This document shows, piece by piece, positions 14,054-42,565 of a stretch of DNA of 60,417 nucleotides. Position numbers and translations under genes: made by a program. The notes under the pieces were generated by a model. It saw only the letters and a list, made by a program, of their open reading frames with translations. It was not told where the DNA came from and searched no databases. The DNA is from Pseudovirgaria hyperparasitica. Its lineage: Eukaryota. How positions within the stretch are numbered: the stretch's first letter is position 1; every line of letters begins with the position of its first letter. Where the stretch lies: assembly GCA_010093815.1 (NCBI GenBank), contig ML996589.1; one strand, given 5' to 3'.

Positions 14054-14109
14054 TACACCTCCGATCTACCTCCGATCTATTTCAGGTCCACTTTAAGTTA
14101 GCTTCTAGT
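14054..14109 (+). repeat. 11-bp-period TCCAC array, left part (split by element A; continues at 33567-33635)
   Basis: tacacctccga/tctacctccga/tctatttcagg/tccactttaag/ttagcttctag; the phase is preserved across the insertion. Confidence 0.75.
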
Positions 14110-14349
14110 TATAAGGATTGTAGACGTAGGATAGTAGTCTAACAGGTCATAGGAGGATTCGGGAATATATTTAAAAGGGTAGTCTACTCTCCTAACGAGG
14201 TTGATTTCTAAAGAGTAGGAATTAAGTGTGTACGGCCTACTTATATAGTGGTCTCGCTTATTCTAGCTAACTTACCCTAGGTCCACCTATTACGGACCGT
14301 ACTAGACTATAGTATTCTAGTTAAGTCTATTCTAGTGTTAGCCCTAATA
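14110..14349 (-). repeat. 3' LTR of element A
   Basis: Near-identical to 33323-33562; RIP-altered TG...CA termini; polypurine tract (PPT) adjacent at 14351-14368. Confidence 0.95.
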
Positions 14350-14836
14350 ATATCCTTCTTCTTTTTATGCTTCGCCCCGAAGTACTTAGCTATATATAAA
14401 TCTATAATTCCATAAGCGTTATGTTTATACGTGTATCTAATTAAATCTATATAATATTATTAATAGTCTTTATATTAGTAAACTTAAGCTCTAGTTCACT
14501 TTTATTTATACACGCGCTTATCCCTTACTTTATGGCTACTACCTTAGAGGTAGCTCCGCGGGTTATATAACCGCTATATTAACTAAGCTTATATTTAGTT
14601 CTCTTATTCTAAATTTTCTTCTCTAGTATATCTACCTTACTCTTAAGGTAAGTCATTAATTCGTATACTATCTCCTTTAGTTTAGATCCGTTCGGGTCTA
14701 GAGTGGTCCATTTTTATTAGAGCTGGTCCTATATAATCTATTCGCGTTATTATGGTTACTAATTTAGCTTCTTTAATCGCCTTTAAGGCTAAACGAGTAT
14801 TCTACTCTTAGATCTCTAGCTAACGTGTATATATAG

Positions 14837-16140
14837 ATATCTAATACTAGTTCTATTCCTAAGCCTATCTCCTCCTCTCACAAGACTCGCTCTAAAGGGA
14901 TTATCTCTACCCTAGCTATACTAGCTAAAAAATCCACTTATCGTAGTAGTGTAAAGGCGCGCTCTAAGTTAGAGAAGAAGGTAGCTAAGGCTACTACTAC
15001 TATTATTACTAACGTGGCTACTAGTCGCTCTAATCTAGGTAATCCTAGTACTAGTATTGCGGAAGAGGTGGCTATAAAGCCTACCTATACCTACTCGCGC
15101 CGCCTATCTACTCTACCTTCTTTAGAGGATAAAGAAGATCTCGTTATAGACGATAATCGAGAGTTTACGCCTTCGCCGCCTCGCTCTAAATACTATTCCT
15201 CTTTTTAGTCTAATATAGACCGACTTAGTTACTCTAGATCCTTTTAGAACCTTAATATTCGCTCTAAACCTAGCCCTAGTAATAATAAGGCCTAGGTCGC
15301 CGAAGATACTAAACGTGGTCGTGGTTTACGCCATAGGAAAACGGCGAACTACGGTTCGATATACTTTAAGTATATTAAGGCTTACGCCACTAGCTCTAAA
15401 TATCTCTTCCGCTCTAACTCTAGTATTAGCTACTACTCTACTAACCGCGACGGGCCTATATACCTAATCTTTAAGCTCCCTACCTACTACCGCCGCTATA
15501 CCATAACTAGTAAGACTTATCTATAGGTAAGTATAATAGGCTATCTTAATCTAGTATAATCTAAAGTAGTCCGTGCTAATATATTCTTAGATTCCTATAT
15601 ATATATAAGATATATATAATAACCTTCGCGTCCGCGAGACCCTTAGGGGTCCTTATAGTCGCCTATCTACTATATAGAGGGAGTTTAGAGAGCGCTATAA
15701 GCTCTTCCTAGAGGTTATTAAAGTATAAGTTATAAGTACGTTAATTATTTTTAATACCTATTAATTTTTCTAGCCGCCGCGAGATCTCTAGCGCCTAGGC
15801 TACCTATTCTAGGGAGTCTATTCTAGCTATAGAGGCCATAGAGAGGATTTACTCTATCCCCCCCCGTCTATCTCGCGCTACTAATAGATCTCTTAAGAGG
15901 TCTACTATTTCTCCCTCTAAGTCGCCTCGTAAGAGGGTATATATTCTATTCTAGATTATTCTAGACCGCGTTAGCTAACTTTAGGTCTAGTCGCTCCGCT
16001 CTAGCGCTTAGTCGTCGTCTTACTAGGCTCTAACCGAGCGCGTGGTTACTCTAGAGAATAAGGTCTCTAATCTCCGTCGCTCTATTACTCGGTTAGTTCG
16101 TTCGCTACGCTCTAAGAGTAATAATAAGATAGAGGAGTAG
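14837..16140 (+). pseudogene. Antisense spliced accessory gene of element A (~396 aa; inferred Cys-cluster plus C-terminal coiled coil)
   Basis: Leader intron 14648-14836 and coding introns 15527-15590 and 15725-15773 (last donor inferred after RIP reversal). The exons join in one frame with only RIP-type stops. The same structure is present in copy B. Confidence 0.7.
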
Positions 16141-16309
16141 CTCTATGGCTCTGTTTACTAGGGTTTTTATATGGTATATATTAGCTCTATCTACCTAGTT
16201 TCTATCCGTTTTGGTCCTTTTTGGACCGTTTAGATACCCGTCTACTAGTTTTCTAGTAATTTAATTCTTAACTTAATGATATTATGTACGTTCTTATTTA
16301 TTCTATAAC

Positions 16310-19300
16310 TATTAAATTTTAGGTTCTAATTTCCTTTAAGTTACTTAAGTATAGGCATCGTATATAAATTGGTTTATCTCTCTAAATTATATTAGAGCAC
16401 CCGAACTAGTAGCCTAGTGGTTATTAGTTCGGGTACTCTAACCTTTTATATTATATATCACGAGTTTAATTCCGTAGTAGGGTACCTTTTTAGTTTCTTA
16501 GTCCTATGTTCTTCTCATATATAATGGTCCATATTAGTCCATTCTAGACTTCTCCATGTTATTCTATTATAATATATCGCGTTGCGTGCCTATAATGGTT
16601 ATTTACGTTTTCTTCGCGTTTAGTAACCGTGTATCGCTTAAATTATAGGGCTGCCTTATAGAGTTTTCCTAGTATGCGTTTAGAATTCGTAATTCGATAC
16701 TTCGTTCTCTACGGTATCCTTCTTCTTTTTATAATAACCACGATATTACTATACTTATATTAATAATACGCTATTCTATATCTTTTACTTATACGCAGCT
16801 ATTATAGAACTTAAGATATATACCGCTAGTTCCTAGGTGTCCTCGTCCTTAGTATAGTCCTTCTAACGGATTCTATATTTCTAAACACCGTCTTTATTAA
16901 TCCTATGTTTAATAATATAGTCCACTTCGAACACGCCTAGTCTATCTTAGGGTATAATAGAGTATAACTATACGTTTATACGGCCATACACGTTAGGTCG
17001 AAATCTTTCGAGTAGTAAGACGTAGAACACGTTATAGATTCTTATATCGCTTCCTAAGTCGAGCTCGTAGGCTCTTATACTAATGTAATATTTAATTTGG
17101 AAGGGACTAGCCATTTTATAATCGAGCTTCTTATTTACTCGCGATATTTATATATTACGGACGTTAAGAAGGACCTTATCGCCCTTCTCGTACGTCTAAT
17201 CCTTAGCTAACCTATTATAGTACTTTATATACGAGTCGTTTACTTATTAGATTATAGCGCGATAGTTACGTACGGTTTCGAAGATTTTAATCGCTAATTC
17301 CTAAGCGTAGACGTTCACGTCTATTATTCGATTAAATTAGACCGTCTAAGGCTTAAAACCTATCCTTAGACTACGTCCGAGATTCGCCTAGAAAGGTATA
17401 ATACCTATCATGCTATAACGACTATTATTATATACGAACTCTACTATACTTAGTAGGGAGGCCTAGTCGTCCTACTCGAAATTATAGAATACGCGTAGAT
17501 AGGCCTTAAGCGTCTAGTTCTATCGCTCTATCTAGCCATCCGTCTAAGAATAAAATACTATAGATATATTTCTATTTATACTTACTATTTCGTAGAATAA
17601 TATCTAGAATTTAGACGTGAAGGTACTTTCTCGGTCTATAACGATCCTTTTTAGTATACTATAGACCTTAATAATCTCGTTCTAGAATACCTACGCTAGT
17701 TCTTTAGATATAATCGTCTTCTACACTAGGATATACCTAGATATCTTTATAAGTCTATCTATAATAATAAGAATAGAATTATAACTTATTCTAAGTATCT
17801 TACTTAGAGATAAGTTAACTATAAAGTCTATAGTAACGTCTTCCTATATAAAGAGGGGGGCTAAAAGAGACTATAAATTCCTATATAGCTTATGCCTAGG
17901 GGCCTTTATTCTTTAATAAATCGGATAAGTAGCTATCTATTCTTCGACGTACTTAGGTATATCTTCCTAAAAATAGTACTAATAAATTAAGCTTAGGGTA
18001 CGTATATACCTAAAGTATCCTACTAGGTTAGCGTTATGGTATCGGCTAACTATATTAAATCGCGTGTTACCCGTCGGTATATAGTACTTTCTATTATAGT
18101 AAAGTAAGCTATCTACAAAGGTCTACTTATAGTCTACTTTAGTCCGTAATAACCTATCTTACTATATTTTATATAACTTTAAAACTATTAGGTCTATCTT
18201 CTATAGATCTACGATTAACTAGGTAAGGTTAATTAGATATTCACGCTAGGCATTATCGCCCTTCCCGATAGCGCTAATAAACGGCCTACTAGGGACTTTA
18301 GTACCGCGTCTTTAGTTACCGGCTTTGGTCTTAGAGATTTAATTACTAGTATCGACGTTAGCATCTCGCTAATCACCTAATAACTTAAAATCTAACCTCG
18401 TCCTTAAGAGTTAGGCCTATAGCTACTCTAGAACCCTATAGCTACTATAATCCTAGGCGCCTTCTTTATAGTTAGGTCTTTTTAATATTCTATTAGCTAG
18501 GTTTATACTTCTAGGTCGATGGTAGATTATAAAGTAAAAGTTTATAAGCTACTTAGCCTATTAGACCTATTAACGGTTTAAAACCGTTATACTTATAAAC
18601 CCCTTTAAGTTATAGTAATTAGTTAGTAACTCGACGTTATATATAGTACCTTTAAGATAATATTACTACTATTTAAACGACTCTACTATTACTAGTAGCT
18701 CTTAGTTATAGATAGTATATCTAGTCTTAATATTAACTATTTTACGTGAGAAGAACGTAACTAGATACTATTAGACCTTTTTAGACTTAGTTAGTCTAGA
18801 CTAGGAGAGAATACCTAAGATTATAAATCCTAACGCGTCGGTTTTAACGCGGATAGATTTAGTCGGGTCGAAGTGCACTAGTAATAGGGTAGTTATAAAT
18901 ACCTCTTTGATTTTCTCGAAGGAGGCCCTTTCGCCTTCTAATAATTCTATAGGCTACGATTTAATATTATACTATTTCTATCTACTACGGACCGTAATAG
19001 ACGAATCTATAGTAGTAGTACGCGCGTTAAGCGGTGCTACTAGCCGGGAGAAATACTTAACGAATTTTTAGTAGTAATTAGCAAATCTAATAAAGACACG
19101 TATATCTCGAACCGATTTTAGTTTAGGCTAGTCTATAATAGTAGCGACCCTATCCCTTTCTATAGTTATACCTTAATTAGTAATAACGAAGCTAAGGAAG
19201 TTAACGTGGTCCTAGTGGAACTCGCATTTAGATAGCTTAATATATAGCTTATATTTTTCTAGTCTATCTAGGACTATATATACGTACTAGATATGTTCTT

Positions 19301-20460
19301 CTTCATTATTAGAGAAGATAAGGATATTATTAAGGTATACGATGCACGTCGTGTCGAGTAGGCCTACTAGCGCGTTATTAATATACGCTTAGAAGGTTCC
19401 TAGCGCGTTAGTTAGTCTAAAAGGGACTACTATATACTTAAAGTATCTATAACGGGTCCTAAACGCCGTTTTCCACTTATCGCCCTTCTTAATATATAGG
19501 CGGTAGTAGGTATCGCGTAGATCGAGCTTAGTAAAGATCTTTACGCGCCCTAGTCTATTAATAGACTTAGAGATAAGAGGTAGTAGATAACGATTCTTTC
19601 GTATAATATTATTTAGGCTATAGTAGTTAATATATAGACGGAAACTCCTATCCTTCTTCTTTATAAAGAGGATTAGAGCTCTAGCTAGGGATATACTAGG
19701 CCTAATCTATCCTTACGTAAGGTTCTTTTCGATATATTCTTAGAGAACCTATAGCTCGGGTTCTAATAGAGGGTAGATAGGTCTATATAGGGGTTATTAA
19801 CCGTCTTTAAGGTTAATAGTAAGGTCGGTAGATTAGTATTAAGGTAATTCGGACGAGTCGATTACTAACGCGATATATTAGTATATTTTATACTAATATA
19901 GTAGGTTTTCGTCTACTTTAATACTAAGCTCTCTATTTTAAGTAAGTAAGAGGACGTAGATAGCGGAGATTACCTTTTTATAGTCCTTCTAGAATTATTT
20001 ATCGTCGACTAGCTATACTAGATTCCATTATAGTAGGTATATACGCCAGCCAGCTGTTTTCTAGACAAAGTCTAGTTTCGGGTTATATTTTTCGAGCTAT
20101 AGTATACCGAGGATTATATTAAAGGGACTATCTACCACGATAAAGGTTAAGTAGTAGGGTTTCTACTTCCCCCCGCTATCCTAGATGCCGTATTTAATAG
20201 TATAGATACCCTATAATTTAATAGGACTATCGATACTATAGAAGGTAGTATCTATTAGTACTTAAATATCGACGTTAAGTTCTCGTGCTCGTTAAGTTAA
20301 TATAACGTTAGTAGCTAAACCGCTATCGAGTATTACGGTCTAATATTATCTATAAGCGACCTTAATAGGTCTAGCCTATAGTTCGATATACTATTTAGCG
20401 GATTACCCCTCTATTATAGTTATATCTATAAGTCGCGAGGGTTTCTTATAGGCTATTAGT
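16310..20460 (-). pseudogene. pol: pol of element A (protease, RT, RNase H, integrase, chromodomain)
   Basis: RT motif KGD(E)WKTAFRTRY at ~19450-19490; GPF integrase tail at ~17100; chromodomain KYRIR(W)KDYTKDEDT(W)E(P) at ~16800-16930; 3' end approximate. Confidence 0.9.
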
Positions 20461-20465
20461 TTTTT
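20459..20465 (-). promoter_or_regulatory. -1 ribosomal frameshift slippery site A AAA AAC (copy B: 41145-41151)
   Basis: The heptamer lies immediately before the gag stop in both copies. In B a 10-bp inverted repeat (41109-41118 / 41131-41140) lies a few nt downstream. Confidence 0.75.
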
Positions 20466-21345: not shown

Positions 21346-21717
21346 TATGGTAAGCTATCGCTACGTATATCCCTTTTATAAATGGCTATATTCCTAGTAT
21401 AGTAGTCGCGACGAACTTACAAGTATCTCTCCTAGGTATTATAAGTTCTCTTTAAACGCACGACTTCTTATTAGTTCTCTTTTATAATAGGACGGGTCTA
21501 TATAATACTCTTAATTAATTCTTTAATAGCTAAGCCTAATAATTAATACCTATAGAGGCCTATAAATATAAGAAAAGGTCGAATAGTTAAATATTAGTAA
21601 TGGGGGGAGCGCGCCGAGCAGAATGACCAAGGAAAACGCCCTCCTTAAATATATAATAAAGCCATATAATCGAGCTAGGGATATATATATATGGGGCTGT
21701 AGGAGCGGCCTTCCACA
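21346..21717 (-). repeat. 3' LTR of element C
   Basis: Near-identical to 32414-32784; PPT GGGGAGG (minus strand) at 21722-21728. Confidence 0.95.
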
Positions 21718-21863
21718 TATACCTCCCCGGCCTATAGAACTACTACCCTTAGTAGTATAGTAACCGTGTGAGAAACCGTATAAAGAACGCCTAAAAGAAA
21801 GACCTTAATACGAATAAAATGCGCCCCTAGTAAACCTCTCGGCGCGGGTAAACCTTAGCCCGG

Positions 21864-21896
21864 ATTATTAGTTAAGGGTAGCCCTTAACTAATAAT
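21864..21896. repeat. Palindrome copy 1 (15-bp arms, 3-nt loop)
   Basis: attattagttaaggg-tag-cccttaactaataat. Confidence 0.9.
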
Positions 21897-21915
21897 TAGG
21901 TAGGTTTTTAGGCGC

Positions 21916-24849
21916 CTAATCTTAGTACTCGAGGTCGCGAGCCAGCTCCTAAAGAATCGTATCGCTTATCTTAGAGAGGTTAGATTCCTCCTCGTCGGAT
22001 AGTTCGTTAGGCCTCTCCTATCTATAGAAGTTCTCTTTAATATTATCTAGGCCCGCGTTAGACTCGAATTTCTTAAAATTAATTAGCCGCTTAGCGGCGC
22101 GCGCCTCGTTAAATTCCTTCTAGAACGACCTATCCCTATAGACTAGCCTTTCCTACCTTACTATTTTCTTAAAGGTCTCTACGAATACCCTCGAGCCCTC
22201 CTTAAACCAGGCGTCTACCTTAGCTTTAAGTTATTAAGGACTTACGTTAAGCCACGCAGCTGCTTCTTCTTTTACCTTCTAGCTATTCTATCTTTTACGG
22301 CCGACTAATACGTTACTAACGGCGTTAAAACTCGGGAGTTAAACTACGGCTAGGAAGGTAAAAGGAATCGCGCTATATTTATTAGAAAATCCCGATAGAG
22401 ACGTGGGTCCCGGAGTTAAATTCCTATAAGCTACTGCGAGTTATTCCTATATACCCATTTTAGGCACTTCTATTATTATATAATTAGGGCCAATCGTAAT
22501 ATACTATGGAAGCATCGTACGTCTTCCACCCTTTACGGGACCCTAGGCGCCGTGTATTATTAGTAGGCTAGAGATGCACACTTTAAGAGACTGGTAGGGG
22601 ACCGGGACGAAGGCACTAAATCGTTTCTTATCGTCCGTATTATAGATCTTGTCGTTAATAGCCGTGATTATACTATTTCGATTAACCCCCTCGCGGAGCT
22701 TGGCCTTCGACTACTATTTATTTAAGAACTTATAGAAGCGGGGAATGATTATAGTATAGTTATTACTTTATTCGTCGTCGAGACTAATGCTCCCCTAGAT
22801 TATATTAAACCCGTGTCTATTGCTAGGATCGAGGATTCGATTAATGGCGTTATTAAGATGCTTAAAACCCGTCTTATCGCCCCTATCCTAGGACTTCGCA
22901 TAGTACGGGTACAAGATTAGATAGTAGTTAAGATCGGGCCGAAGAGCGATATAGGTAAGCTAGTAAAGTAGGTATTACCTAATAAACTATTAGATATAGG
23001 AGTAGTATATAGTTCGTAGCCAGCCGTAGTTCGATTTCTTATTAAACATACGCTAGTGGTACTTATATATATTAAATTCATCCCTCGCGAGTTCTAGAAT
23101 ACTCTTATTAAGTATAGAGGTCGTCTTTTTAAGTGGCTCGAAGAGCCCTTTAATATTAATACTTCCGGTACATTCCTACTCGTCGAAGAGTTATCTACCT
23201 ATTCTACTATCCTCCTTCTAAATTATAAATGCGATACTAGTAAGGATGGTTTTAATATTAATGACTTGCTTCGGGGTCTCTAGGGCCTAGTAATAATAGA
23301 TACCTAATACCTCTATCGGATAAGGTAGCCGCGCGTACTTCGCGAACTAGGTATAGCGGTCCTTATAAACTTTAAGGGCCCCTATATTATCTCTAAACTT
23401 ATATACTATTTTAAGTCTCGCTACTAGGTTTAAGTGGGATACGCTAATGAGTATATTATTCTTTCTAGCCACGTCTTGGTAATGCTTATAGTAGACTTTA
23501 TACGGAATAGCTATATTACCTATCTACGCTTTCTAGCGTACTAGTAGGGCCATTCCCTTAATGCTCGTGAAATTCTTCTTTAATAATATAGCTACCTTAA
23601 AAGTCTTCGTTACTAAAGGCGCGTATTAACACTTCTTAGGCTCATCCTCTTCCTCGACCGATGCTATTATCTTAGGGTACGAACTAAGAATAACCGGGGA
23701 TTATCGTATAGGCGCCCCTAGTAATTACTAAGGGCCGGTAGATAAGGTACGTCCGTAAGTGGGTTTTATCGGCGTGGCTATAATAGGCACTAAAGAGGTT
23801 CTCGCATGGCCCGGTAAGGGACATATACTAGTAGTAGTAGAAGGAATACTTACTTCGAATGGATGACTAGCTTCAAAGAGATAATATACTACTAAACTAG
23901 AAGGCGTGCTTCGTAGAGGGGACTTCACCGCGGGCGTTACCTACGCTAGTTTTAGCGATGGTAAGGTCTAAGGCGGAGGTAATACACTTATCTCTTTAAT
24001 TTATAGGTAGTATTTAACGGGCCTATGAACTATTCTACTTATCCGTGACTATTAACTAGCGGGGATAATAAGTCCCGTCTTATTATAGAACGTTAGTTTA
24101 TTTTATTGGCTAGGGTAGTTCGAGAGTTACTAGAGAGATAGACTATCCTTATTACTATTGCTAGCTAGGGCGGTATTAATATTAGAGCTCTAAAGATATA
24201 CCTTAATTCCCCTTCCCTTCTATCTCTAGCCGATTTAGAACTATAGGGATACGTTTAACTAGTTCCTCGCTCTCGCCCATGTCCGCATTCGTAAGAGCGC
24301 TACTAGCTTTTTTATAAAGTTCTATATTTACTAGAGCTGTCCGAGGGCGGATTAGAGTAACTAGCCGTCGTTATTAGGGAGGTCTTTTCGCTAGTTTTAT
24401 AGGATTATATTTTTAGCTTTTAGAATGCGGGAGTTAGTATCTCTTCTACGACGAATTATCTCGTGGACTTCTTTTAGAATAGAGGAGTTAATCTTTACCT
24501 TACTATACCCTATTACGGCTCCTACTTCCTAGAAGAGGTTAACTATACTACTTAAGAGCTATTCTACGAGGCTAGTAATGTAAAGGAGATTATTAAACGT
24601 GTCTAGAATATAGTCCTATCGCTCTTACGGGTCCTAGATAGCGATAATTCGGTTAATAGTGGACTTATTTACTTCTATAGCTTCTGTAGCCTATCCGTGC
24701 GGAGTAGTAGATGGCCTCGATACTATAATAGCCGTTAATAGCCATGCTTTAGCACTCACGACTCTTAACTAGGACCGCGTCTATCTTATTAGTACTTAAC
24801 GATCTTATAACTCTTTACGGGTAGGCGTTTTCTTTTTCGGCGGGGCTAT
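21916..24849 (-). pseudogene. ORF3 of element C: ~978-codon protein with a C-terminal PhyH-like 2OG-Fe(II) dioxygenase domain
   Basis: One continuous frame with only RIP-type stops. Motifs: FKHL(N<D) at 22852-22860; I(Q)GSISLDDE..N(C)TIIIPRF(H)K; VPVP(C)...HGA at 22552-22554; RRTMLP(W)Y at ~22500-22524. Confidence 0.8.
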
Positions 24850-24879
24850 TATTATTATCGGTTCTATTAGCGAGTTACA

Positions 24880-25000
24880 TTCTAAGGAGAGGTAGTTTAA
24901 GCGAGGCGGAAGTGGAGGAGGAGGTTTTATTAATTAAGGAGGTATAGAGAGGTGTAAGAGGGAAGAGTTATATACTATCTTAAGTTCTCTTTTTATACCT
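24880..25000 (-). promoter_or_regulatory. Putative internal promoter of ORF3
   Basis: TATAAAAA (minus, 24990-24997) is followed by a CT-rich tract, ~140 nt upstream of the RIP-altered start codon at 24849. Confidence 0.5.
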
Positions 25001-25071
25001 CCTCGAATGCCGGGTATATAGTGATTTTTATAAATGATCCTTACTAACGGCCGTAGGCCCGTATACGTGTC

Positions 25072-25172
25072 GAATCTATGAATAAATATATACTAGGTAT
25101 ATAGGAAATCTATGAATAAATGTATCTACCGGGTATATAGCGGAATCTATAAATGAATAGATACCGGGTATA
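25072..25172. repeat. ~34-bp imperfect tandem repeat x3 between pol and ORF3
   Basis: aatctatgaataaat...taccgggtata units. Confidence 0.8.
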
Positions 25173-28100
25173 TTCTTATCCTTATAAGACTTTCTATAAG
25201 TATCTTTTTCTCCTATACCTCCTCCTTCTTTTCTTCCTTATTAGTTTCTAATAGGGCCCGTTCTATAGTAACGAAATAGGCCTTCGATAGGTAGGCTTCG
25301 ATTACACGACCGGCTTTAATATATAGTAGGTGGAATTCGCGTAAACGCCATTATGTCTTCTTTCGAGCATTACTTACTTTAATAATAAGTTTTATTATTT
25401 TATAGTAATGATAGGGTTTATCATCCTCTTTTAATAATAGAGTTCATCGTCCTTTTTCGATAATAGAGTTTATCGTTATGAGACTACTTTTATAAGCATC
25501 CCTTCCCTCCTTAAAAAAACTTCTATCCCCTAGAAGGAGATATCGATTCTAGGGAAACGTAAATATTCTTCTCTATTAAAGTCTTACGGAGTAGGAATTA
25601 CTACTTCTACCCGGGTTCGTGTGGCGTCGTCGAGGTGTTCCGTAAGTTATTTATAATAGTTTTCCTTATCGCTACTCTCCTTATTTTCCTTAGTAATTCT
25701 TCTAATTAGTAGTCGCGAGGGCTCGTCGTAACTCTCGTTACTTACATTTCTTATAAAATATTTCTTTAACCTATGGCTAGGAAACGTCCCTCTAAGTATG
25801 GCTCTATTAAGCTCCGCGAGCTTATAAGTATAATTAAACACGGACTAGATTCTATATAGCCCCCTCTAATACTACCTTAGCTTCCGCCCTATATCCTTCT
25901 ATTACTGCGAGTTATATAGGAGGATAATCGTATTAACTAGTAACGACTCTTAACGAAGGTAATAGTCGTTATTCCATGCCTCTCTCGATTCCTTACGCGT
26001 TCGTATTACGTGGGCATAGGCCTCCTTAAGATTCTTAGATCTTCTCTTAAGTTATCTAGCTCGAAGAGCGAGTAAGTCGGACATTAATCGCACCTCGTTC
26101 TAAGGGAGCATTCGGAGCGACTTGAATTCGACTTCGATAGATATAATTAGTTTATAGCCGAGTACGAGGTATACGGTACTATACCCTATACTAGTACGTA
26201 TCGTTATTCTATCTACCTAGACGACCGCATGGAGGTAGCTAGGCTAGTTCTTGAATCCGCTATTAGTTATCTTCGCGAGAGTATTAGCGAGTAGTATAAA
26301 ACTTCTCTCGATAATTCTATTTACTCGGGGATTATACGTAGACGTAACCTTCTAATAAATTCTATAGAGTTAGAGGAGCTCCTCTATAGCACCTATATTT
26401 TCTCTACTACCGTTATAGGTGATTTTAGGAATGATTCCGTATCTATAGATTACGTTCTTAAAGAGGAACTTTATAACGACTATGGACGTGGCTACCGTAC
26501 ATGCCTCCGCCTTAGTCTATCCGCTTAGCTATTCTTATATAGATACTACTTTACTATACCCTATAGAAGGTGGTAGCGTCGTTACGTCTAAGTATATTCT
26601 TTACTAAAGAATAGACGTTATAACGTGGTAGAGCCCTTTATTAAGACCTCCGAGGAGTTTACTTCGTCGTTAATATTTATTATAGGTTTTCACGTGCTAT
26701 CGCACGTCTCTACGTATACCTACCTACTAATACTTATTCTTAATCCTTCCGAGGGTCCCTTCGCTACCTCTATAATCTATCTCGTTATAAGTGGTGGTAA
26801 TTATACGCGCCCTAGTATTCGGATCCTTAATTACTCGTGTATATTAGCGATGCCTATCTCCTCTCCGCTAGAGTATTCGGTTATATATAAGGAACTTTAG
26901 GTAGTCGGTTATAAAGGCCTTATACGCTCGGTCGGTTAGATCGGTTAGCCTCTTGAGTATAGTAAGGTACTTTATAATCCTCTACTATTTATCGCTATAT
27001 TCATCTATTAAGGGAGACTTAATAGTAGTATAGTCGAGTGTCTCTATTATGTAATCTCTCCCGCTAACGGGCTTAATTAACGACGTCTCTAGTATATCTA
27101 TATATAGAGCCATGTCTATAAACTCGTCTAGGTTAAAGGTAGGAACGTCTAGTAGTTCTTCTCCTTTATATATCCGTAAGATGCTATCGGCGACTATATT
27201 ATGCTTTCTAGATATATATCTAACTATAAAGTTCTATAGCTAAATCCACGCAAGCCACCTAGTAACGAGCGCCCCTAGTAAGTTAGTTATAGTACGGTTA
27301 ATTTAAGCGACTAGAGTATTCGCGTCTATTTCCATAATAAAGTGCGTGCTATAGAGGTATTACCGGAACTTCTATAACGTATAGAGGAGGGCTCGGTACT
27401 CTAGCTTTACGGTGTCGTAGTTTCTCTTAGCTTTTAACCATATTCCTCTATTATACCGCGATAGCTAACGTTTATAATCCTCGTTCTCCTATATTAACGT
27501 AGCTCCCTACCTAACGTTACTAGAGTCTACTACTAGAATTATATCTCCCGTATCTATTCCGTACCGTAACGTTATTAGTGCGGGAGTAGTAGTTAGAGCT
27601 ATCTTTAGCGCGTCCATTAAGGTCTACTCCTTAGCTATCTACTACTAGGCCGATTCATTCTTTAATAGTATAAATAGCGGTGATGTAATAATAGCGTACC
27701 CGGGGATCTATATCCGGAAATATATATAAACGCTAAGGAAGGCTCGCATATTCGTCGTGTTTTTATAGGGTTTCCAGTCCCTAATAGTAGTAACCTTTTC
27801 ATTACTCGGTCGCCTCCCTTTAATATTATAGACGTATTCTATAACGTTAGCGGCTTTAATATACTACTAAGTCTTCTTACTACTTAGGGCGTATCCGGCG
27901 CGCTCTATATCCGCGAGAACCTTATCTACGTTAATTAAATATTCTAGGATATACCTACGAATTCTAGGTAGGGCCTCCTTAGAGTTATATTTCGTTATAG
28001 GTCCTTTAATACCTAAGTTATCTAGGAATAGTAGAGCCCTCTCCGGGATATGTTCTTATATAATAGTTAATATAATTCTAACGAACTAAGCTACTAAATT

Positions 28101-29162
28101 AGTAGCCCCTTAAGGTAATATTATCCCACGTAGTAATCCTAGGGGCGTTATAAACCCCGTTAAGTCTCGGTAATACTCTACTAATAGAATCTAATTATAT
28201 TCTAAGAAGAAGTCGGTAAACGTTAAGACGGCTATCCCCGTAAAGTACTCCGAGAACTCTTTACACGAGGGCGGCGTGGCCGTATTACGAATGGTGACTT
28301 GGTTAATTTCTATCGCCGAATTAATTAACCTGTAATCTCGTTCCTTATTGGCTTTCTTCTTCTTTTCCACGAGAAAATAGACGTTTCGATAAGGACTACT
28401 ATAGGGCTCGAGCCTTCTACTATTAAGACGCTCTTTTAGAATCGTAAGTACCTTCCTATAAAGGGCTCTAGGAATATTAAAGTTCTTAGTCTACTATACC
28501 TTATGTTCTACCGTTCGGATCTCCTATAGAGATGCTACCTCTTCGTTAAATTTACTAAGGTATAAGAATTCCCATGCTAGTGCTTCCTCGCGATATAATA
28601 AGATCGTATATAGTAACTTAAGTTCCGTAGGATGTAGCTCTATTCTAATCTTTAGCTAACTTATACGTAGAGGCGTTAGACGTGTTCCTAGCGGGATAGT
28701 TACCCTTTAAGGCTCTATTAGTCTATTAAACGCGTTAAGGCCTAGATAGACGACTAGAAGAAGTGCCTACCGTGCGATTGCTCGTTCACGCTAGTCTAGA
28801 TACCCTAATAGATTCCTAGGAACCTTTTAGTGGGCTTCGGAGTCATCCACGGGGTGTACTTTAACTCCCTTTCTTTTATATATAGTAGCTATACTAAATC
28901 CCTTTAATACCCCGGATGAATACCGTCTTTAGAGGCCGGTGGAGCCTACTATAAGCCGTTCTATTATCGTGCCTTATTTATATACGAAGGCAGCGTACCT
29001 TACCGCCGTAACTAGGGCGGCTAAGTTATCTTTTCTCGATAACCGAGTAACATTTTTAGGCCGGATTTTCTTAGAAAGTAACTCTATATAACTTATTTCT
29101 ATATCCATATAAAAATATAGCCTATCCCCTTCGTTAGTGGGTTTACTAGACCCTATTTAGTA

Positions 29163-29201
29163 CGGATTATTAGTTAAGGGTAGCCCTTAACTAATAATCC
29201 G
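29163..29201. repeat. Palindrome copy 2 (18-bp perfect arms, 3-nt loop)
   Basis: cggattattagttaaggg-tag-cccttaactaataatccg. Confidence 0.95.
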
Positions 29202-31881
29202 GCTTAACTCTAGCTTCCGGCGATATACTCCGCTATATAGTTAGTCTCTAGCCACGGAGTTACCCTCCTTCTCTAAGACTAGAATATACTTATCCGGACT
29301 AGTTTCGAAGGTTATACGTTCTTATCTATATACGGAGTAGACTATTAAGAGTACTTACCCGGAGGCTAACCTCTATACCGTAAGTAAGGCCTATCTAGTA
29401 TATGGCTCCCCTAGGATAAGGTTATGATTAAGTTTACTATATACGAATATCGAAGTGGCCGTAATAATCCGACCTATATAGATAGGGTATTACTATACTA
29501 TTCCTATAAATGGAGTACTATACTAAGTAGCGCTAACTAAACTCGAGTTCTTTATATATAGTAGAAGCGAAGATATCGCTAGCCTGAGACGCCTCGTAGC
29601 ATCTAGTCAAATACTATTTACCTATACGCTACTATCGAATAGTACTATACTAGTCGCCCTTTTAGGACTAACTTCCACGGGGTACCTTAGATACTCGGCT
29701 ACTAGCCTTACTATTCCTTTCTTAAGCTAATTAATATCTCGTTATATAATAGCCGTCCCCGTGGTATAGAGGGGTGCTAATATATTAAGTTTATTTATCT
29801 CGGGAGCCATAGTATAGTCGTTTCTTCCTTTCTTCTCAGCTCTCTCTTCTTAAGTCTCGTGGACCTCTCTAGCTATAAAGTCGGGGGCGCCCTTCTTGAA
29901 TACTACATGATATAAGTTGCTATTAAGGCTTAATAGTTCGCTAATAGTAATGTTTATAGTTATCCCTAGAACGCGCACTAGCTATGCTTCGCTAGCTTCT
30001 ATGCTTAGCCGCTATCCTTCGCGTAGATAGTTATTAAGCTTAACGCCTCGGATATATGCCTTTTAACTAGGATTTAGGCTATCTCCTTTATCTATCTTAT
30101 CCTCTAGCGCCGTTAGCTCTTATTTAGATGTTCCCTAGTTACTACTCTTCTCGCCGTCCTTCTATTCCTTAATAATTCTTATGTACTACCCTTTACGTAT
30201 TCCGCGGAGATAGGCGATCTTTCTTTCCTTAGTACGATTAGGTATACTCTTCGTGATCCCCCTTCTAGATATTACGAGTATAGCGGGCTCTTCTAGGGCT
30301 ATCTCCTTACGGATATATCTATTACTAGCCACGTCGAAGCGTTCGTAGAATTCTATATATCTATCTTTCTTACTCTTGGGCGATATAACTTCTTCTTCCG
30401 AATTACTATCCGCCGAGGCCTAGTAGAGACCCTTTATAGGTTTTATACTAATACTATATACTAGTACCCCCTATAAAGCGTTAATGTTTACTACGGACGT
30501 AGAAACCTTTACTCCTCCTCCGTACTAGCTTAGACCGTTTTAAACCGTTACTATATAGTTCCGGATAGCTTATAGAGTAGCTTATAGCCCTACCGAGGAG
30601 GGTAGTAATAGAATTTCTTCTCTATTCGCCCCGAAACGCCCTTAGAATACTCGTACCCCGTTAATATTTAGTAATCCGTCTCTAATATATCCTACTATCT
30701 CTAGACATCTATATATTAGGTAATCTCCTCCGCACGTAATGCACACGATCGGTCTTCGAGGCCTATCCTAGGCTATAACGCCTCCTTAGGAGTCTTAGGT
30801 AGAGATGTATTCTCTATTCTATATATAATTCTATAGATAAACTTACGTTAGTTCTATAGGCATGCCTCGTACTTAGAGATATACTAAAAGATTTAGCCTT
30901 CGCGCCTACTAGTTAATAATAGCCGAAAGTAGCTTAGGTTCGTACTTCTTAAGGGATGGGAATAAGAGATTAGAGGTAAAGTAGGACTTTATCTTAATGA
31001 ACGTAAGGTCTAGTTTACTAAATCTCTCTACCATCTTATTAAACTTATCCGATTCTAGCGCGACGTATACTACGACTAGAGAGGGGTAGTTAAATTTATT
31101 AGTTCTTCTTTCTTCATATAACTACTCTTCTAAGCCGGTCTTCTTACTCCCTATCTTTGATTTATAGTATATAGCTATGGCTAGCTCTTATGCGGCTGAG
31201 TACTTATTAATACGAGCTAGTTCCTTAAGTACTCTAGCCTTTTATAATACGAAGCCATAGATAATTACCTAGTTATAACTATATACTTCTATCGTGAGTT
31301 AACATTTCTCTATAGCCCGAGCCTTAAGACTATTAGGCAGCCCTTCTAGGAAGAGCTCTATTTATGAATACGAGCTTAGACTTTCTTTAGCCGTAAGTTT
31401 CTCCGTAATAACACGATACCGGGAGTAGTATATAGGGAGAGAGTAGGATGGGTCTACTTTAACCATTTCCACGTATTTTCGGATAAAGTAGATGGTACCT
31501 TCCTCGAGGGTAGAGTTAAATAGAGAGAATTCCTTTAATAATTCTTCACGTAGCGTGGTCTACTACTATTTCTAAAACCTACTTATTTCTTTAATAGTAG
31601 GACGGAGATAGTCCTCATAGTATAACGGTAGGGAGGTTATCTTCTTATTAGGCGGAACTTTATAGTTTATATATATGTCCTCGTACTTCCGAAGGAAGAC
31701 CGTAATGTTTATTCCTTTAAAGCGCTCGGGGGCTAGGGTAGGTAGAGATACTATCCTTCCTTATCGCGTAAATGCTACGAAGAAGTTAAGCATCTCTCTA
31801 CGAGTTACTAGGTTATTATTTTAAGCTCCTATCGCACCATTACTAGTAGTAGATATGCTAGTAGAGACGCTAGGGGTAAGG

Positions 31882-31909
31882 TTATTAGTTAAGGGATTAC
31901 CTTAACTAA
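31882..31909. repeat. Palindrome copy 3 (degenerate, 10-bp arms)
   Basis: tta-ttagttaagg-gatta-ccttaactaa. Confidence 0.75.
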
Positions 31910-32392
31910 AGGTTAGCCTAATGCGTCTACCTATAATACCTATTATCCCTTCTCTATGTTAACTAATCCCTTTATAAGGTAAACTATTACTATCGTCTTC
32001 ATCGATATAAGGTTCACGGTATCCTACTTATATTATTATCTTCGTGTAAGGCGTTCCTAAAGTAGTATACTCGTGTGGCCGTGTTTATGAATAACAGCTA
32101 TAGTAGCACTAAATAGGTTATATTTATCGTTTTTAAACTCTTCTTTACTACTTTATCTAGCCCTATTTTATATTCTATTCCCCTAAGACATTTTCGAGTC
32201 GCGCTATCACCCGTGTTAGCATGCGTATACTTTTTATAGCTACTTTTAAGAGGCTAGCCCCTAGCGACTCCGGACTCCCTGTTTTCTGGACTCGTGGCTT
32301 TAATCTAGTAAGTCTAGACTACCTTATTAGGTACGCTATATACTTCCCCTAAGCTAGTTTCGGAGTTCTAATCTCCCCCTATAAGTTTATAG

Positions 32393-32409
32393 TCCGGGTA
32401 CGACCTCTA
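32393..32409 (-). promoter_or_regulatory. Primer-binding site (PBS) of element C, probably tRNA-Gln
   Basis: Minus-strand tagaggtcgtacccgga (TGGAGGTCGTGCCCGGA after RIP reversal) lies 4 nt inside the 5' LTR and resembles the complement of fungal tRNA-Gln 3' ends. Confidence 0.65.
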
Positions 32410-32413
32410 AAAT

Positions 32414-32784
32414 TATAGTAAGCTATCGCTACGTGTATCCCTTTTATAAATAGCTATATTCCTAGTATAGTAGTCGGGAGAACTTATAAGTATCTCTCCT
32501 AGGTATTATAAGTTCTCTTTAAACGCACGACTTCTTATTAGTTCTCTTTTATAATAGGACGGGTCTATATAATACTCTTAATTAATTCTTTAATAGCTAA
32601 GTCTAATAATTAATACCCATAGAGGCCTATAAACATAAGGAAAGGTCGAATAGTCGAATATTAGTAATGGGGGGAGCGCGCCGAGCAGAATGACCAAGGA
32701 AAACGCCCTCCTTAAATATATAATAAAGCCATGTAATCGAGCTAGGGACACATACATGTAGGGCTGTAGGAGCGGCCTTCCACA
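32414..32784 (-). repeat. 5' LTR of element C
   Basis: Direct repeat of 21346-21717. Confidence 0.95.
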
Positions 32785-33322
32785 CTAGGATAGATCGTTT
32801 TAGTTGGTATGGGTCTATATAAATATAGATTAGTCGTTACTAGAACTAAAGCGCGTAATATAGCTTTAAGTCTCGTAGTGCGTCCTTAAGCTTCGTCGAG
32901 TTCGCGTAGTTATTACTTAAGTTAAACCTATTATTACCTCTCTTCGTGTAGTCTAGTATATATATCGTTATAAGATATAGTTAACGTTAGGCGATTCTAA
33001 CGGATTAACTCGTTAACGTTAATAAGGTCTAGCCTCATGTTAAGATTAGGTCTAGTATAGTTTAAACTAGACTAAGATAGAGTATAATAGACTCTATCCT
33101 CGTGTTCTATAATATCTTCCATAGTTATACGGAATATCGTGCGAGTTATCGGTGCGATAGCCTATAAGATATAGTTATCGGTGGGGGTAGTTATAGATAG
33201 ACTATTCTCCTCGTTTAGGTTAGGAGAAGGTCTACTATAAGAGGCGGTACCATGAGTATTATAACGAGTGGTTAGAGCCATTTCTATAAACTACCGTCGT
33301 GCTATATAAAGAGGAATTAAAA

Positions 33323-33562: not shown

Positions 33563-33566
33563 CTAG

Positions 33567-34760: not shown

Positions 34761-34998
34761 TATAAAGAGTAAAGACGTGGGATAGTAGTCTAACAGTTCA
34801 TAGAGAGATATAGGAATGTATTTATAGAGTAATCTTACTCTTATACGAGGTTAATTCCTAACGAGTAGGAATCGGTTTATACGGTCTACTTATATAGTAA
34901 CCTTGCTTAACTTAGCTAACTTAACCTAGCTCTAGCCACTACGTGGCTATATGGATTAGAATAGTCTATATAGGTCCGTTATAGTTCCCGTCCTAATA
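34761..34998 (-). repeat. 3' LTR of element B
   Basis: Direct repeat of 42566-42803; PPT at 35000-35017. Confidence 0.95.
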
Positions 34999-35477: not shown

Positions 35478-36790
35478 ATATCTAATACTAGTCCTATCTC
35501 TAAGCCTACCTCCTCCTCTTATAAGACTCGCTCTAAAGGTATCGCCTCCTCCCTAGCCACGCCGGCTAAGAAGCCTACCTATTACGGTAGTATAAAGGCG
35601 CGCTCTAAGTCGGAGAAGAGAGTAGCTAGGGCTACTACTACTACTGCCTCTACTACTAATATAGCCACTAGTCGCTCTAATCTAGGTAATCCTAGTACTA
35701 AACTTATAGATAAAGTGGTTATAGGTTCTCCTCTTACTCTAAAGCGTATACCGCCTACTCTATCTTCTCTAGAGAATAAAGAAGATCTTATTATAGATGA
35801 TAATCGCGAGCCCTCGCGCTTACCTACGCCGCCGCCTCACCGCTCTTCCTTCCGGTCTAATATAGACCGATTTAGTCGCTCTAGGTTCTTTTAGGACCTT
35901 AATATTCGCTCTAAACCCTAGCCCACTAATAATAAGGCCTAGGTCGCTAAGGATACTAAACGTGGTCGCGGTTTACGCCATAGAAAAACGGCGAACTACG
36001 GTTCGATATACTATAAGTATATTAAGGACTATACGGCCGGCTCTAAATATCTCTTTCGCTCTAACTCTAGTATTAGCTACTACTCTACTAACCGCGACGG
36101 GCCTATATACTCTATCTTTACTCTACCTACCCGCTACCGCTACTATACCGTGACTAGTAAGACTTATCTATAGGTAAGTATAATAGGCTATCTTAATCTA
36201 GTATAATCTAAAGTAGTCTACGCTAATATATTCTTAGGTTCCTATATATATATAAGATATATATAACGACCTTCGCGTCCGCGAGACCCTTAGGGGTCCT
36301 TATAGCCGTCTATCTACTATATAGAGGGAGTTTAGGGAGCGCTATAAGCTCTTTCTAGAGGTTATTAAAGTATAAGTTACGAGTACGTTAATTATTTTTA
36401 ATACCCGTTAATTTTTCTAGCCGCCGCGAGATCCCTAGCGCCTAGGCTACCTATTCTAGGGAGTCTATTCTAGCTATAGAGGCCGTAGAGAGGATTTACT
36501 CTATCCCCCCCTATCTATCTCGCGCTACTAACGGATCTTATAAGAGGTCTACTATTTCTCCCTCTAAGTCGCCTCGTAAGAGGGTATATATTCTCTTCTA
36601 GATTATTCTAGATTATATTAGCTAACTTTAGACCTAGTCGCTACGCTCCGGCGCTTAAGGCTCTTCCCTCTAGGCTCTAATAGATTAGATTATTACTCTA
36701 GAGGCTAAGGTCGTCGTCCTCCACCGCTATATCGTATAGTTAGAGAGAACTATACTAGAGATTAGGACGGATAATAAGATAGAGGAGTAG
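35478..36790 (+). pseudogene. Antisense spliced accessory gene of element B
   Basis: Homolog of 14837-16140 with the same splice signals (donor 35289, acceptor 35477, donor ~36174) and the same ...EE* end. Confidence 0.7.
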
Positions 36791-36999: not shown

Positions 37000-39900
37000 T
37001 TTCTATATTCTAATTTTCCTTGAGTTACCTAAGTGTGGGCACCGTATATAAATTAGTTTATCTCTATAAATTCTATTAGAGTACCCGAACTAGTAGCCTA
37101 GTAGTTATTAGTTTAGATACTCTAACCTTTTATATTTCGTGTTAAGAGTTTAATTCTATGGTAGGGTACCTTTTTTTAGGTTCTTGGTCCTATGTTTTTC
37201 TTATATATAATAGTCTATGTTAGTCTATTCTAGACTCTTCTATATTATTCTATTATAGTATATCGCGTCGCGTTTCTAAAATGGTTATTTACGCTTTCTT
37301 CGCGTCTAGTAACTATACAACGCTTAAATTATAGGGCTACTATATAGAGTTTTTCTAGTGCGTGTCTAGATTTCCTAGTTTAGCACTTCATTCTCTACGG
37401 TATCCTTCTTCTTTTTATAATGACCGCGACGTCGCTATACTTATATTAATAATACGCTATTCTATATCTTTTACTTATATATAGCTATTATAGAACTTAA
37501 GATATGTACCGCTAGTTCCTAGGTATCCTCGTTCTTAGTATAGTCCTTCTAATAGATTCTATATTTCTAAATACCGTCTTTATCGATCCTATGTTTAATA
37601 ATATAGTCTACTTTAAATACATCTAGTCTATCTTAGAGTATAATAGAGTGTAACTACACGTTTATACGGCTATACACGTTAGGTCGAAATCTTTCGAGTA
37701 GTAAGACGTAGAACATATTATAGATTCTTATATCGCTTCCTAAGTCGAGCTCGTAGACTCTTATACCGATATAACGTTTAATTCGGAAGGGACTAGCCAT
37801 TTTATAATCGAGCTTCTTATTTACTCGCGATATTCGTATATTACGGACGTTAAGAAGGACCTTGTTGCCCTCCTCGTATATCTAATCCTTAGCTAACCTA
37901 TTATAGTACTTCGTATACGAGTCGTTTACTTATTAGATTATAGCGCGATAGTTACGTACGGTTTTAAAGATTTTAATTGCTAATTTCTAAGCGTGGACGT
38001 TCACGTCTATTATTCGATTAAATTAGACCGTCTAAGGCTTAAAACCTATCCTTAGACTACGTCTAAGGTTCGCCTAGAAAGGTATAATATCTATCGTGCT
38101 ATAACGACTATTATTATATATAAACTCTACTATACTTAGTAGAGAGGCCTAGTCGTTCTACTCGAAATTATAGAATACGCGTAGATAGGCCTTGAGTATC
38201 TAGTTCTATTACTCTATCTAGCCATCCGTCTAAGAATAAAATACTATAGATATGTTTCTATTTATACTTACCATTTCGTAGAATAACGTCTAGAATTTAG
38301 ACGTGAAGGTACTTCCTCGGTCTATAACGATCCTTTTTAGTATACTATAGACCTTAATAATCTCGTTCTAGAACACCTACGCTAGTTCTTTAGATATAAT
38401 CGTCTTCTATACCGGGATATACCTAGATATCTTTATAAGTCTATCTACGATAATAAGAATAGAATTATAACTTATTCTAAGTATCTCGCTTAGAGGTAAG
38501 TTAACTATAAAGTCTATAGTAATATCTTCCTATATAAAGAGGGGGGCTAAAAGAGGCTATAAATTCCTATATAGCTTATACCTAGGGGCCTTCGTTCTTT
38601 AATAAATCGGATAAGTAGCTATCTATTCTTTAATATACTTAGGTATATCTTTCTAAAAATAGTACTAATAAATTAAGCTTAGGGTACGTATATACCTAAA
38701 GTGTCCTACTAGGTTAGCGTTATAGTATCGGCTAACTATATTAAATCGCGCGTTACCTGTCGGTATATAGTACTTTCTATTATAGTAAAGTAAGCCGTCT
38801 ACGAAGGTCCACTTATAGTCCACTTTAGTCTATAATAATCTATCTTACTATATTTTACGTAACTTTAAAACTATCGGGTCTGTCTTCTATAGATCCACGA
38901 TTAACTAGGTAAGGTTAATTAGATATTTACGCTAGGTATTATCGCCCTTCCCGATAGTACTAATAAACGGCCTACTAGGGACTTTAGTACCGCGTCTTTA
39001 GTTACCGGCTTCGGTCTTAGAGATTTAATTACCGGCATCGACGTTAGCATCTCGCTAATCGCCTAATAACTTAAAATCTAACCTTGTCCTTAAGAGTTAG
39101 GCCTATAGCTACTCTAGAACCCTATAGCTACTATAATTCTAGGCACCTTCTTTATAGTTAGGTCTTCTTAATATTCTATTAGCTAGGTTTATACTTCTAG
39201 ATTAATAGTAGATTATAAAGTAAAAGTTTGTAAGCTACTTAGCCTATTAGACCTATTAACGGTTTAAAACCGTTATACTTATAAACCCCTTTAAGTTATA
39301 GTAATTAGTTAGTAACTCGACGTTATATATAGTACCTTTAAGATAATATCGCCACTATTTAAACGACTCTACTATTACTAGTAGCTCTTAGTTATAGATA
39401 GTATATCTAGTCTTAATATTAACTATTTTACGTGAGAAGAACGCAACTAAATACTATTAGACCTTTTTAGACTTAGTTAGTCTAGGCTAGAAGAGAATGC
39501 CTAAGATTATAAATCCTAACGCGTCGGTTTCGACGCGGATAGGTTTAGTTAGATTAAAGTACACTAGTAATAGGGTAGTTATAAATACCTCTTTGATTTT
39601 CTCGAAGGAGGCCCTTTCGCCTTCCGATAATTCTATAGACTATAATTTAATATTATACTATTTCTATCCACCGCGGACTATAATAGATAAATCTATAGTA
39701 GTAGTACGCGTGTTAAGCGGTGCTACTAGCCGGGAGAAATACTTAACGAATTTTTAGTAGTAATTAGCGAATCTAATAAAGATACGTATATCTTAAACCG
39801 ATTTTAGTTTAGGCTAGTCCACGATAGTAGCGACCCTATCCCTTTCTATAGTTATATCTTAATTAGTAATAACGAAGCTAAGGAAGTTAATATAGTCCTA

Positions 39901-42524: not shown

Positions 42525-42565
42525 CTCTATAAGCTACTATCGTGCTATATAGAGAGGAATTAAAA

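Follow-up and report, generated by a model that had tools for sequence, protein, structure and literature searches.

The 60,417-nucleotide (nt) sequence analyzed here (the window; Pseudovirgaria hyperparasitica, contig ML996589.1) contains two long terminal repeat (LTR) retrotransposons, designated A and B, each of which harbors the relic of a gene on its opposite strand. Both elements are complete Ty3/gypsy chromoviruses on the minus strand, mutated by repeat-induced point mutation (RIP) and dead in the present genome, and in both copies the relic lies on the plus strand between pol and the 3′ LTR (14837-16140 in A and 35478-36790 in B). The explanation that accounts best for the findings, and that is considered likely, is that A and B are RIP-killed copies of a chromovirus whose family carries its own four-exon accessory gene, antisense to the element. 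The initial annotation had proposed an antisense, intron-containing gene in both copies, and the proposal is borne out by Pfam matches in the minus frame, by self-BLAST, by the stop density of exon 1, and by two related loci (L001 and L002) in which the corresponding gene is open once spliced.

The orientation of the elements was established from pol. Pfam searches of stop-masked translations revealed a single minus frame of B that holds RVT_1 (5.5e-19), RT_RNaseH_2 (3.5e-15), and SH3_Tf2-1 (7.8e-9), together with Integrase_H2C2 under its cut-off (9.7e-4), and zero matches in the remaining five of the six frames. Because the pol domains occur only in the minus frame, the left LTRs are the 3′ LTRs. 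The polypurine tract beside the left LTR fixes the orientation independently of Pfam.

Coding evidence

Stop codons were counted in 60,622 windows of 230 codons, taken from six frames of the 31-kb RIP region. Exon 1 was found to contain 3-4 stops per 230 codons, compared to a background mean of 21.4, and windows with four stops or fewer occur in three places only: exon 1 of A, exon 1 of B, and one spot in an LTR element nested inside A. When followed in 300-nt steps, the exon 1 frame shows 2-3 stops per 100 codons and the other frames 4-21. Since the true pol frames in the RIP region carry 5-8 stops per 100 codons, the exon 1 frame is cleaner than that of a known gene. Exon 1 was certainly an open reading frame (ORF), and the probability that a gene relic exists is high. 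Exons 2-4 contain 6 stops in 151 codons, against a background of about 9 per 100. The indels between A and B within the gene measure 6 nt (exon 1) and 3 nt (exon 4); ten indels outside it measure 1, 1, 1, 4, 15, 1, 33, 2, 1, and 2 nt, of which 15 and 33 are likewise multiples of 3.

The gene ends in a leucine-zipper-like heptad tail, which the initial annotation had described as resembling a coiled coil. Over 29 residues, hydrophobic side chains occupy eight of the eight a/d positions in both copies and 1 of 21 other positions (Fisher 2e-6, for a register picked after looking). This pattern was kept although the tail has accumulated 26 transversions between A and B; exon 1 has accumulated 37.

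Exon-intron structure

The predicted introns have a guanine-cytosine (GC) content of 0.16-0.31, and the exons one of 0.38-0.50. The gene is laid out as follows.

14648..14836, plus strand: possible 5′-untranslated region (5′-UTR) intron of A (GTAAGT...GCTAAC...TAG), ending one base before the first codon and common to A and B
14837..15526, plus strand: exon 1 of A, 230 codons, beginning with ATA and ending with TAG directly before GTAAGT
15350-15520, plus strand: Tyr-rich putative former Cys/His cluster of A, within exon 1
15527..15590, plus strand: intron 1 of A, 64 nt, GTAAGT..GCTAAT..TAG (TAG at 15588-90), phase 0, GC 0.28
15591..15724, plus strand: exon 2 of A, 134 nt, with 2 stops by frame analysis
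15725..15773, plus strand: intron 2 of A, 49 nt, phase 2, GC 0.16, with the donor ATAAGT in both copies
15774..15936, plus strand: exon 3 of A, 163 nt, with 1 stop and a basic S/P/K/R-rich stretch
15937..15984, plus strand: intron 3 of A, 48 nt, GTATAT..GCTAAC..TAG, phase 0, GC 0.31, containing 3 stops
15985..16140, plus strand: exon 4 of A, with the leucine-zipper-like heptad tail at 16030-16116 and the stop codon TAG at 16138-16140
35478..36790, plus strand: antisense gene of B, with exons 35478-36173, 36238-36371, 36421-36583, and 36632-36790; 384 codons with 12 internal stops

In A, the four-exon model joins 381 codons with 10 internal stops. The ATA at the start of exon 1 is plausibly an ATG changed by RIP. 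The splice signals noted in the initial annotation are indeed common to A and B (GTAAGT at 15527, GCTAAT, TAG at 15588-90, and the later GCTAAC...TAG). Its statement that three exons join in frame depends on the second donor: it holds with a donor at 15725, which reads ATAAGT and yields 397 codons, and does not hold with the GT donor at 15723, where exon 2 would measure 132 nt and lead into a frame that holds 13 stops in every 100 codons. With the acceptor at 15773, no other donor position connects exon 2 to the coiled-coil frame. The ATAAGT donor may be a former GTAAGT or GTGAGT that underwent a TpG-to-TpA RIP change. The same G-to-A donor change occurs naturally among the relatives described below, where L067:9467 reads GTAAGT and L062:5179 (and its twin L063) reads ATAAGT; the L062 copy is otherwise open despite this donor. 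Leaving intron 3 in place does not disturb the frame, as its 48 nt are divisible by 3. Four exons are preferred over three, with intron phases 0, 2, 0, and a multi-exon model is reasonably likely. A likeness between 'ILDRVS' and the 'LDRRLGE' of the L048 family was considered and dropped, since ILDRVS falls in the presumed intron 3.

Relatives identified through pol

Because the product of the antisense gene matches nothing anywhere, relatives were sought through pol. The pol of A has 230 database homologues at E≤1e-20; among the top ten, nine list PF00385 (chromodomain). These ten sequences were combined in a profile, which led to 79 related chromovirus loci from metagenome contigs (L numbers). 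Comparative counts were made in the 35 of these 79 loci with at least 900 nt after pol, using antisense ORFs within 2.5 kb of pol. The motif C-x2-C-x5-8-C was found in an antisense ORF in 16 of 35 loci and in a sense frame in 4 of 35, and two such motifs were present on the antisense side in 10 loci and on the sense side in 1 locus. The survey of related chromoviruses that the initial annotation had suggested thus did recover such ORFs, in loci that are spread over several pol clades.

Phylogenetic trees of pol were built with FastTree (65 rows) and with the quick mode of IQ-TREE (26 rows). Both place A and B in a five-row clade with L030, L001, and L002, with a support of 100; a caveat is that the stem leading to the RIP copies is long and their composition unusual. 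The L030 contig lacks downstream DNA, and L001 and L002 are the nearest relatives that have it. Each of these two carries a four-exon antisense gene that is open once spliced (319 and 286 residues, respectively) and that ends in a short coiled coil, and the intron phases are 0, 2, 0 in L001, L002, and the window copies alike. The Cys pattern is C-x2-C-x16-C-x20-C-x2-C-x5-C in L001 and C-x2-C-x16-C-x12-C-x20-C-x2-C-x6-C in L002. In both, the first intron begins exactly two codons past the last Cys (C-L-E|GT in L001, C-L-A|GT in L002), which is the same spot as in the window copies. This likeness of gene plan was seen before the trees were built.

Removal of canonical GTRNGT / CTRAY / YAG introns opened antisense frames in L001, L002, L033, L044, and L048. 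With one intron removed, frames of 339 (L044), 277 (L048), 340 (L033), and 305 residues (L062, donor ATAAGT) are open. A separate observation concerns L032, in which a 287-residue antisense ORF behind pol (5168-6031, minus strand) resembles a Tc1/mariner-type transposase by eye and, if so, would be a foreign insertion.

Tyrosines and the putative cysteine cluster

The end of exon 1 was reported in the initial annotation as Y-x2-Y...Y-R-R-Y-x6-Y, and this pattern is present in A at Y176/Y179 and Y218/Y221/Y228, where the sequence before intron 1 reads Y-x2-Y-x38-Y-x2-Y-x6-Y-L-TAG|GTAAGT; B reads Y-R-Y-Y-x6-Y. The effect of RIP on residues was calibrated with pol columns that are conserved in at least nine of ten non-RIP relatives. 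Of the cells at Cys columns, 6 of 8 now read Tyr, as do 13 of 18 at His columns; Met became Ile in 2 of 2, stops replaced Trp in 18 of 20 and Gln in 10 of 10, and Tyr itself persisted in 32 of 38. In A and B alike, the integrase C-x2-C has turned into Y-x2-Y. The Tyr content is 8.0% in the window pol, compared to 4.0% in the relatives' pol, and amounts to 20-22% over the final 60 codons of exon 1. Because of this calibration, the integrase Y-x2-Y, and the Tyr enrichment, it is reasonable to read some of the exon 1 tyrosines as former Cys or His. Part of them derive from Arg (CGC to TAC, from the comparison of A and B). The suggestion that the Tyr cluster was once a Cys cluster is therefore plausible from the pol cells in which Cys became Tyr, and Cys is found at the matching positions of L001 and L002. 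A search for further L001-type genes returned only P0121, a database protein of 92 residues. It shares 77% identity with L001 exon 1, carries Tyr in place of one of the L001 Cys residues, and resembles a copy of that gene that underwent RIP in nature.

The further suggestion of a Zn2Cys6-like cluster is partly supported, by related elements rather than by A and B. The PF00172 spacing C-x2-C-x6-C-x5-12-C-x2-C-x6-8-C was tested with Tyr read as former Cys. In A and B only half of it (Y218-x2-Y221-x6-Y228) was found in any plus frame, the best six-position fit fails at one position (Thr202), and no second half was found after intron 1 in the three plus frames. The spacing of A, B, L001, and L002 is C-x2-C-x37/38-C-x2-C-x5/6-C, with long spacers, and is not that of Zn2Cys6. 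The canonical C-x2-C-x6-C-x11-C-x2-C-x6-C is present exactly in L033, L044, and L062/L067, with a near variant in L048. These loci represent a separate 19-row sister clade, in which nine of the nine loci with downstream DNA carry an antisense gene of this canonical type with a coiled coil. Behind the Cys cluster, the sister-clade genes encode a basic patch and then a long helix, and in L033 and L062/L067 an intron lies in the loop between the third and fourth Cys.

Profile and structure searches for a Zn2Cys6 fold in this clade scored below threshold. Among the ORFs of 10 relatives, L044 alone matched Zn_clus (E 0.036, 14.6 bits, under the cut-off of 21). An AlphaFold2 model from five sister-clade sequences (mean predicted local distance difference test score, pLDDT, 65) places short helices at the C-x2-C pairs and a helix at 100-152 with pLDDT 82-92. 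Foldseek gave no match at E≤0.001 for this model; 18 of the 20 weak rows listed are DNA-binding domains of Leu3, Pho7, Put3, Gal4, Ppr1, AlcR, or Hap1. The ESM Atlas look-alikes include a cluster named Zn(2)-C6 fungal-type (score 0.89), which is a lead only. The sister-clade antisense gene thus appears, from sequence and model, to have the hallmarks of a Gal4-type DNA-binding and dimerization module, at sub-threshold Pfam and fold scores.

The host elements and their surroundings

The region of 13-44 kb has a GC content of 0.27-0.41, compared to 0.42-0.52 in most of the flanks, and self-BLAST resolved three parts in this AT-rich stretch: element A (14110-21343, resuming at about 32814-33562 beyond the nested element), the nested LTR element, and element B (34761-42803). 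A and B are 86% identical over 7312 columns (14109-21343 against 34760-42029).

14110..14349, minus strand: 3′ LTR of A, 240 nt; the 5′ LTR partner is 33323-33562, and the pair is 96% identical by self-BLAST and LTR alignment
14105-14109 and 33563-33567: target-site duplication of A, 5 bp, CTAGT, from the boundary read-out
14353..14366, minus strand: polypurine tract of A, AAAAAGAAGAAGGA on the minus strand, adjoining the 3′ LTR, read from the sequence
16779..19721, minus strand: reverse transcriptase-RNase H-integrase-chromodomain part of the pol of A, one frame with RIP stops, from the alignment with B
21346..32784, minus strand: nested LTR element inside A, gypsy-type, 11.4 kb, LTR pair 95% identical, RNase H matches on a minus frame; separate from the present finding
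34761..34998, minus strand: 3′ LTR of B, 238 nt; the 5′ LTR is 42566-42803, and the pair is 94% identical
34756-34760 and 42804-42808: target-site duplication of B, 5 bp, ATTCT
37474..37617, minus strand: degraded chromodomain at the end of the pol of B (Pfam Chromo, E=3.6e-4, 20.8 bits; cut-off 25.1)

RIP is indicated by a TpA/ApT ratio above about 0.89 and a (CpA+TpG)/(ApC+GpT) ratio below about 1.03. The values are 1.77-1.78 and 0.16-0.17 in the elements, and 0.80 and 1.16 in the flank. Over 3.6 kb of pol (16753-20353), A and B differ by zero transversions. The two elements are mosaics: zero transversions were also found in 15553-15853, and elsewhere there are 29-44 per flanking segment (14353-16752 and 20353-21343). 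Between the two elements, the LTRs agree at only about 77%. Before RIP, A and B had identical pol yet came from diverged subfamilies, which suggests recombination in reverse transcription or gene conversion.

Other features were observed in the window. A reversed solo LTR of the A/B family is present at 53544-53793 in a short AT-rich patch (GC 0.30), and is 76-82% identical to the LTRs of A and B. The nested element has about 3.7 kb between the end of its pol (about 25460) and its 3′ LTR, and this spacer contains protein-like minus-strand frames and a stop-poor plus frame at 22087-23430. In the non-RIP flank, a minus-strand frame of 405 codons (49799-51013) matches Pfam DUF7924 (E 3.2e-14), and five further long flank frames gave zero Pfam matches. 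D-loop-like and T-loop-like pieces seen by eye at 16380-16480 had raised the possibility of a tRNA, which was rejected, since ARAGORN predicted 0 genes in the window and a comparison with Rfam returned 0 matches at E≤1.

Contrary evidence and alternative explanations

Several results weigh against the preferred explanation, among them the searches with the gene product. None of 2811 candidates was significant in a word-indexed search, HMMER over 1.84 billion proteins gave 0 matches, a metagenome scan yielded 313 pattern matches of which none was confirmed, tblastn against the 79 loci reached a best E of 0.73, and Pfam matched none of four window segments. Direct comparisons with L001 were no stronger, with z scores of -0.7 and 1.4 for Smith-Waterman alignment to the natural sequence and of -0.5 and 0.07 with a RIP-aware matrix, and an E of 0.45 for hhalign of exon 1 against L001 plus P0121 (the register chosen being the one seen by eye). 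Only L001 subjected to RIP in silico gave a marginal score, one that 11 of 300 and 3 of 300 shuffles also attained, and part of it may come from a composition in common. Nor does L001 resemble L002 (z 0.42). Purifying selection, judged from transversions, is weakly indicated: 10 of 37 are synonymous in exon 1 against 6.9 expected (P 0.14), and 10 of 26 in the tail against 5.6 expected (P 0.04); gag, used as a control, gave 14 of 44 (P 0.005). The half motif Y/C-x2-Y/C-x6-Y/C is expected by chance 0.17 times per 230 codons (0.74 per 1000 codons), and the introns in the relatives were chosen by the authors. Two other comparisons were uninformative: a collapsed-codon (RIP-invariant) alignment to L001 (z -0.3 and 1.0), which has no power, and an AlphaFold2 model of L001 exon 1 (mean pLDDT 38).

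Because sequence similarity is absent even between L001 and L002, homology rests on position, gene plan, and the pol tree. Similarity between the antisense genes is lost quickly, but their place, strand, exon plan, and layout of Cys residues and coiled coil are kept. The antisense protein evolved fast, with the exception of the heptad tail. Upstream of exon 1, the same plus frame at 14353-14836 has 11 of 29 transversions synonymous against 4.9 expected (P 0.005, one of 30 tests). It carries about 10 stops per 100 codons and indels that are mostly not multiples of 3, and its synonymous excess may be chance.

Splice signals alone are weak evidence. In the 31-kb RIP region, both strands of which were searched (62 kb in total), GTAAGT occurs 29 times and GTAAGT..CTAAY..YAG in full 10 times, so that the introns might be chance matches in TA-rich RIP sequence. 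Exon 1 alone would then be coding, TAG 15524-15526 would be a true stop, and 15527-16140 would be 3′ UTR. This account, which would also explain why donor 2 is not GT in either copy and why the exon 3/4 frame before removal of intron 3 (8 stops per 121 codons) is no better than the neighboring frame, is nevertheless considered unlikely: all eight a/d positions of the heptads survive heavy divergence, the tail has a 3-nt indel and, in its frame only, a synonymous excess, and L001 and L002 share a multi-exon plan with a C-terminal coiled coil.

The lack of detectable relatives of the product would also fit a fragment of a host gene, or a piece of another mobile element, that was recently picked up by the ancestor of A and B and is not a standing chromovirus gene. 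The mosaic structure of A and B indicates that recombination occurs in the family, and foreign insertions behind pol do occur, as the transposase-like ORF of L032 illustrates. The gene of L001 and L002, which agrees in place, strand, exon plan, and Cys pattern, and the antisense Cys-motif ORFs across several pol clades make such a recent acquisition very unlikely. That the plus frame merely mirrors a third, for instance env-like, ORF on the sense strand is hardly credible, since the minus frames there, while also stop-poor (8-10 per 230 codons), are clearly worse than the plus frame, the splice signals and heptad tail are read on the plus strand, and Cys-motif frames in the non-RIP relatives are predominantly antisense.

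Proposed function and significance

For the preferred four-exon antisense gene, a product of about 380 residues is predicted before RIP, from four coding exons with phases 0, 2, 0. It would have comprised a low-complexity N-terminal half, a cluster of some six Cys that now read Tyr, a basic stretch, and, at the C terminus, a coiled coil resembling a leucine zipper. Introns can persist in an LTR element when they are antisense to the genomic RNA; those of the present gene are not removed in retrotransposition, because the gene is antisense to that RNA. Transcription may start in the 3′ LTR or between the 3′ LTR and 14837. The Cys cluster, basic stretch, and zipper would be consistent with a nuclear, zinc-binding, dimeric DNA-binding factor, which might tune transcription of the element's own promoters or nearby chromatin. 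The intact relatives, by sequence and model, also point to a protein that may bind DNA and dimerize. A regulatory function is put forward tentatively, with HBZ of HTLV-1, the type 1 human T-cell leukemia virus, as its closest functional parallel.

A broader proposal, which is likewise speculative, is that several fungal chromovirus clades carry a class of genes not described so far. Its members would be antisense and spliced and would encode small Gal4-like proteins that combine a Cys cluster (Zn2Cys6, or Cys6 derived from it) with a basic linker and a coiled coil. These would act as sequence-specific DNA-binding dimers that control the element's own LTR promoters or local chromatin, and the window gene would be a derived member. 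If true, fungi would have their own counterpart to HTLV-1 HBZ, and zinc-cluster domains might have been spread through fungal genomes by this class. The A and B copies are dead and of little matter to the host, but the antisense gene is common in related fungal chromoviruses, both in the overall survey and in the sister clade, where every testable locus carries it. An assignment of 'function unknown' becomes a testable claim of zinc binding, dimerization, and LTR DNA binding. A practical point for fungal repeats mutated by RIP is that a run of Tyr can be the trace of a Cys/His cluster, and that former genes are still recognizable by frames poor in stops.

Comparison with known systems

HBZ of HTLV-1, the best-studied analog in design, is described as antisense, transcribed from the 3′ LTR, and spliced, with a basic, DNA-contacting part and a leucine zipper (PMC1459196, PMC3185765). 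It belongs to a human retrovirus and has a basic leucine zipper and not a Cys cluster, so the parallel is an analogy of design only, with no homology. Gal4-type modules (Gal4, Put3, Ppr1, Leu3, Hap1) resemble the products of L033, L044, L048, L062, and their kin in the spacing of six Cys, the basic linker, and the long helix. They differ in that A, B, L001, and L002 have long spacers, that the scores are sub-threshold, and that a mobile element, in place of a chromosomal regulator gene, is the carrier. Within the open-access literature searched, no report was found that connects a retrotransposon's antisense gene with a zinc cluster.

Antisense ORFs between pol and the 3′ LTR, termed aORF-3R, are reported for the plant elements Grande, RIRE2, Retand, and PvRetro13 in a 2020 review, according to which the function of such extra genes is not known (PMC7264820). 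They share with the window gene the place, the strand, and the occurrence in most copies of a family. They differ in their plant hosts, and Retand is reported to belong to a non-chromovirus lineage (PMC11963269). The features of the aORF-3R class, which includes the fungal gene brtn, namely an antisense frame between pol and the 3′ LTR in copies of a family, are found in two of two window copies and, in intact form, in L001 and L002.

The closest described gene is brtn, an extra antisense gene between pol and the 3′ LTR of Boty-like gypsy elements of Botrytis, as described in four citing papers (PMC8365987, PMC7264820, PMC4227169, PMC5987419). The likeness extends to a fungal gypsy element with a chromodomain-bearing gag-pol (PMC4227169) and to an antisense gene in the same place (PMC7264820). 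The window copies differ in being RIP-dead, and are likened to brtn by description; whether the library of 1.84 billion proteins that returned no match includes BRTN is unchecked. In the open-access literature searched, brtn was the only fungal antisense retrotransposon gene found, and it was reportedly published in 2011 (Zhao, Virology 417:248). The window gene is a dead, newly recognized member of a kind already known from brtn, the accessory genes that fungal chromoviruses carry in antisense.

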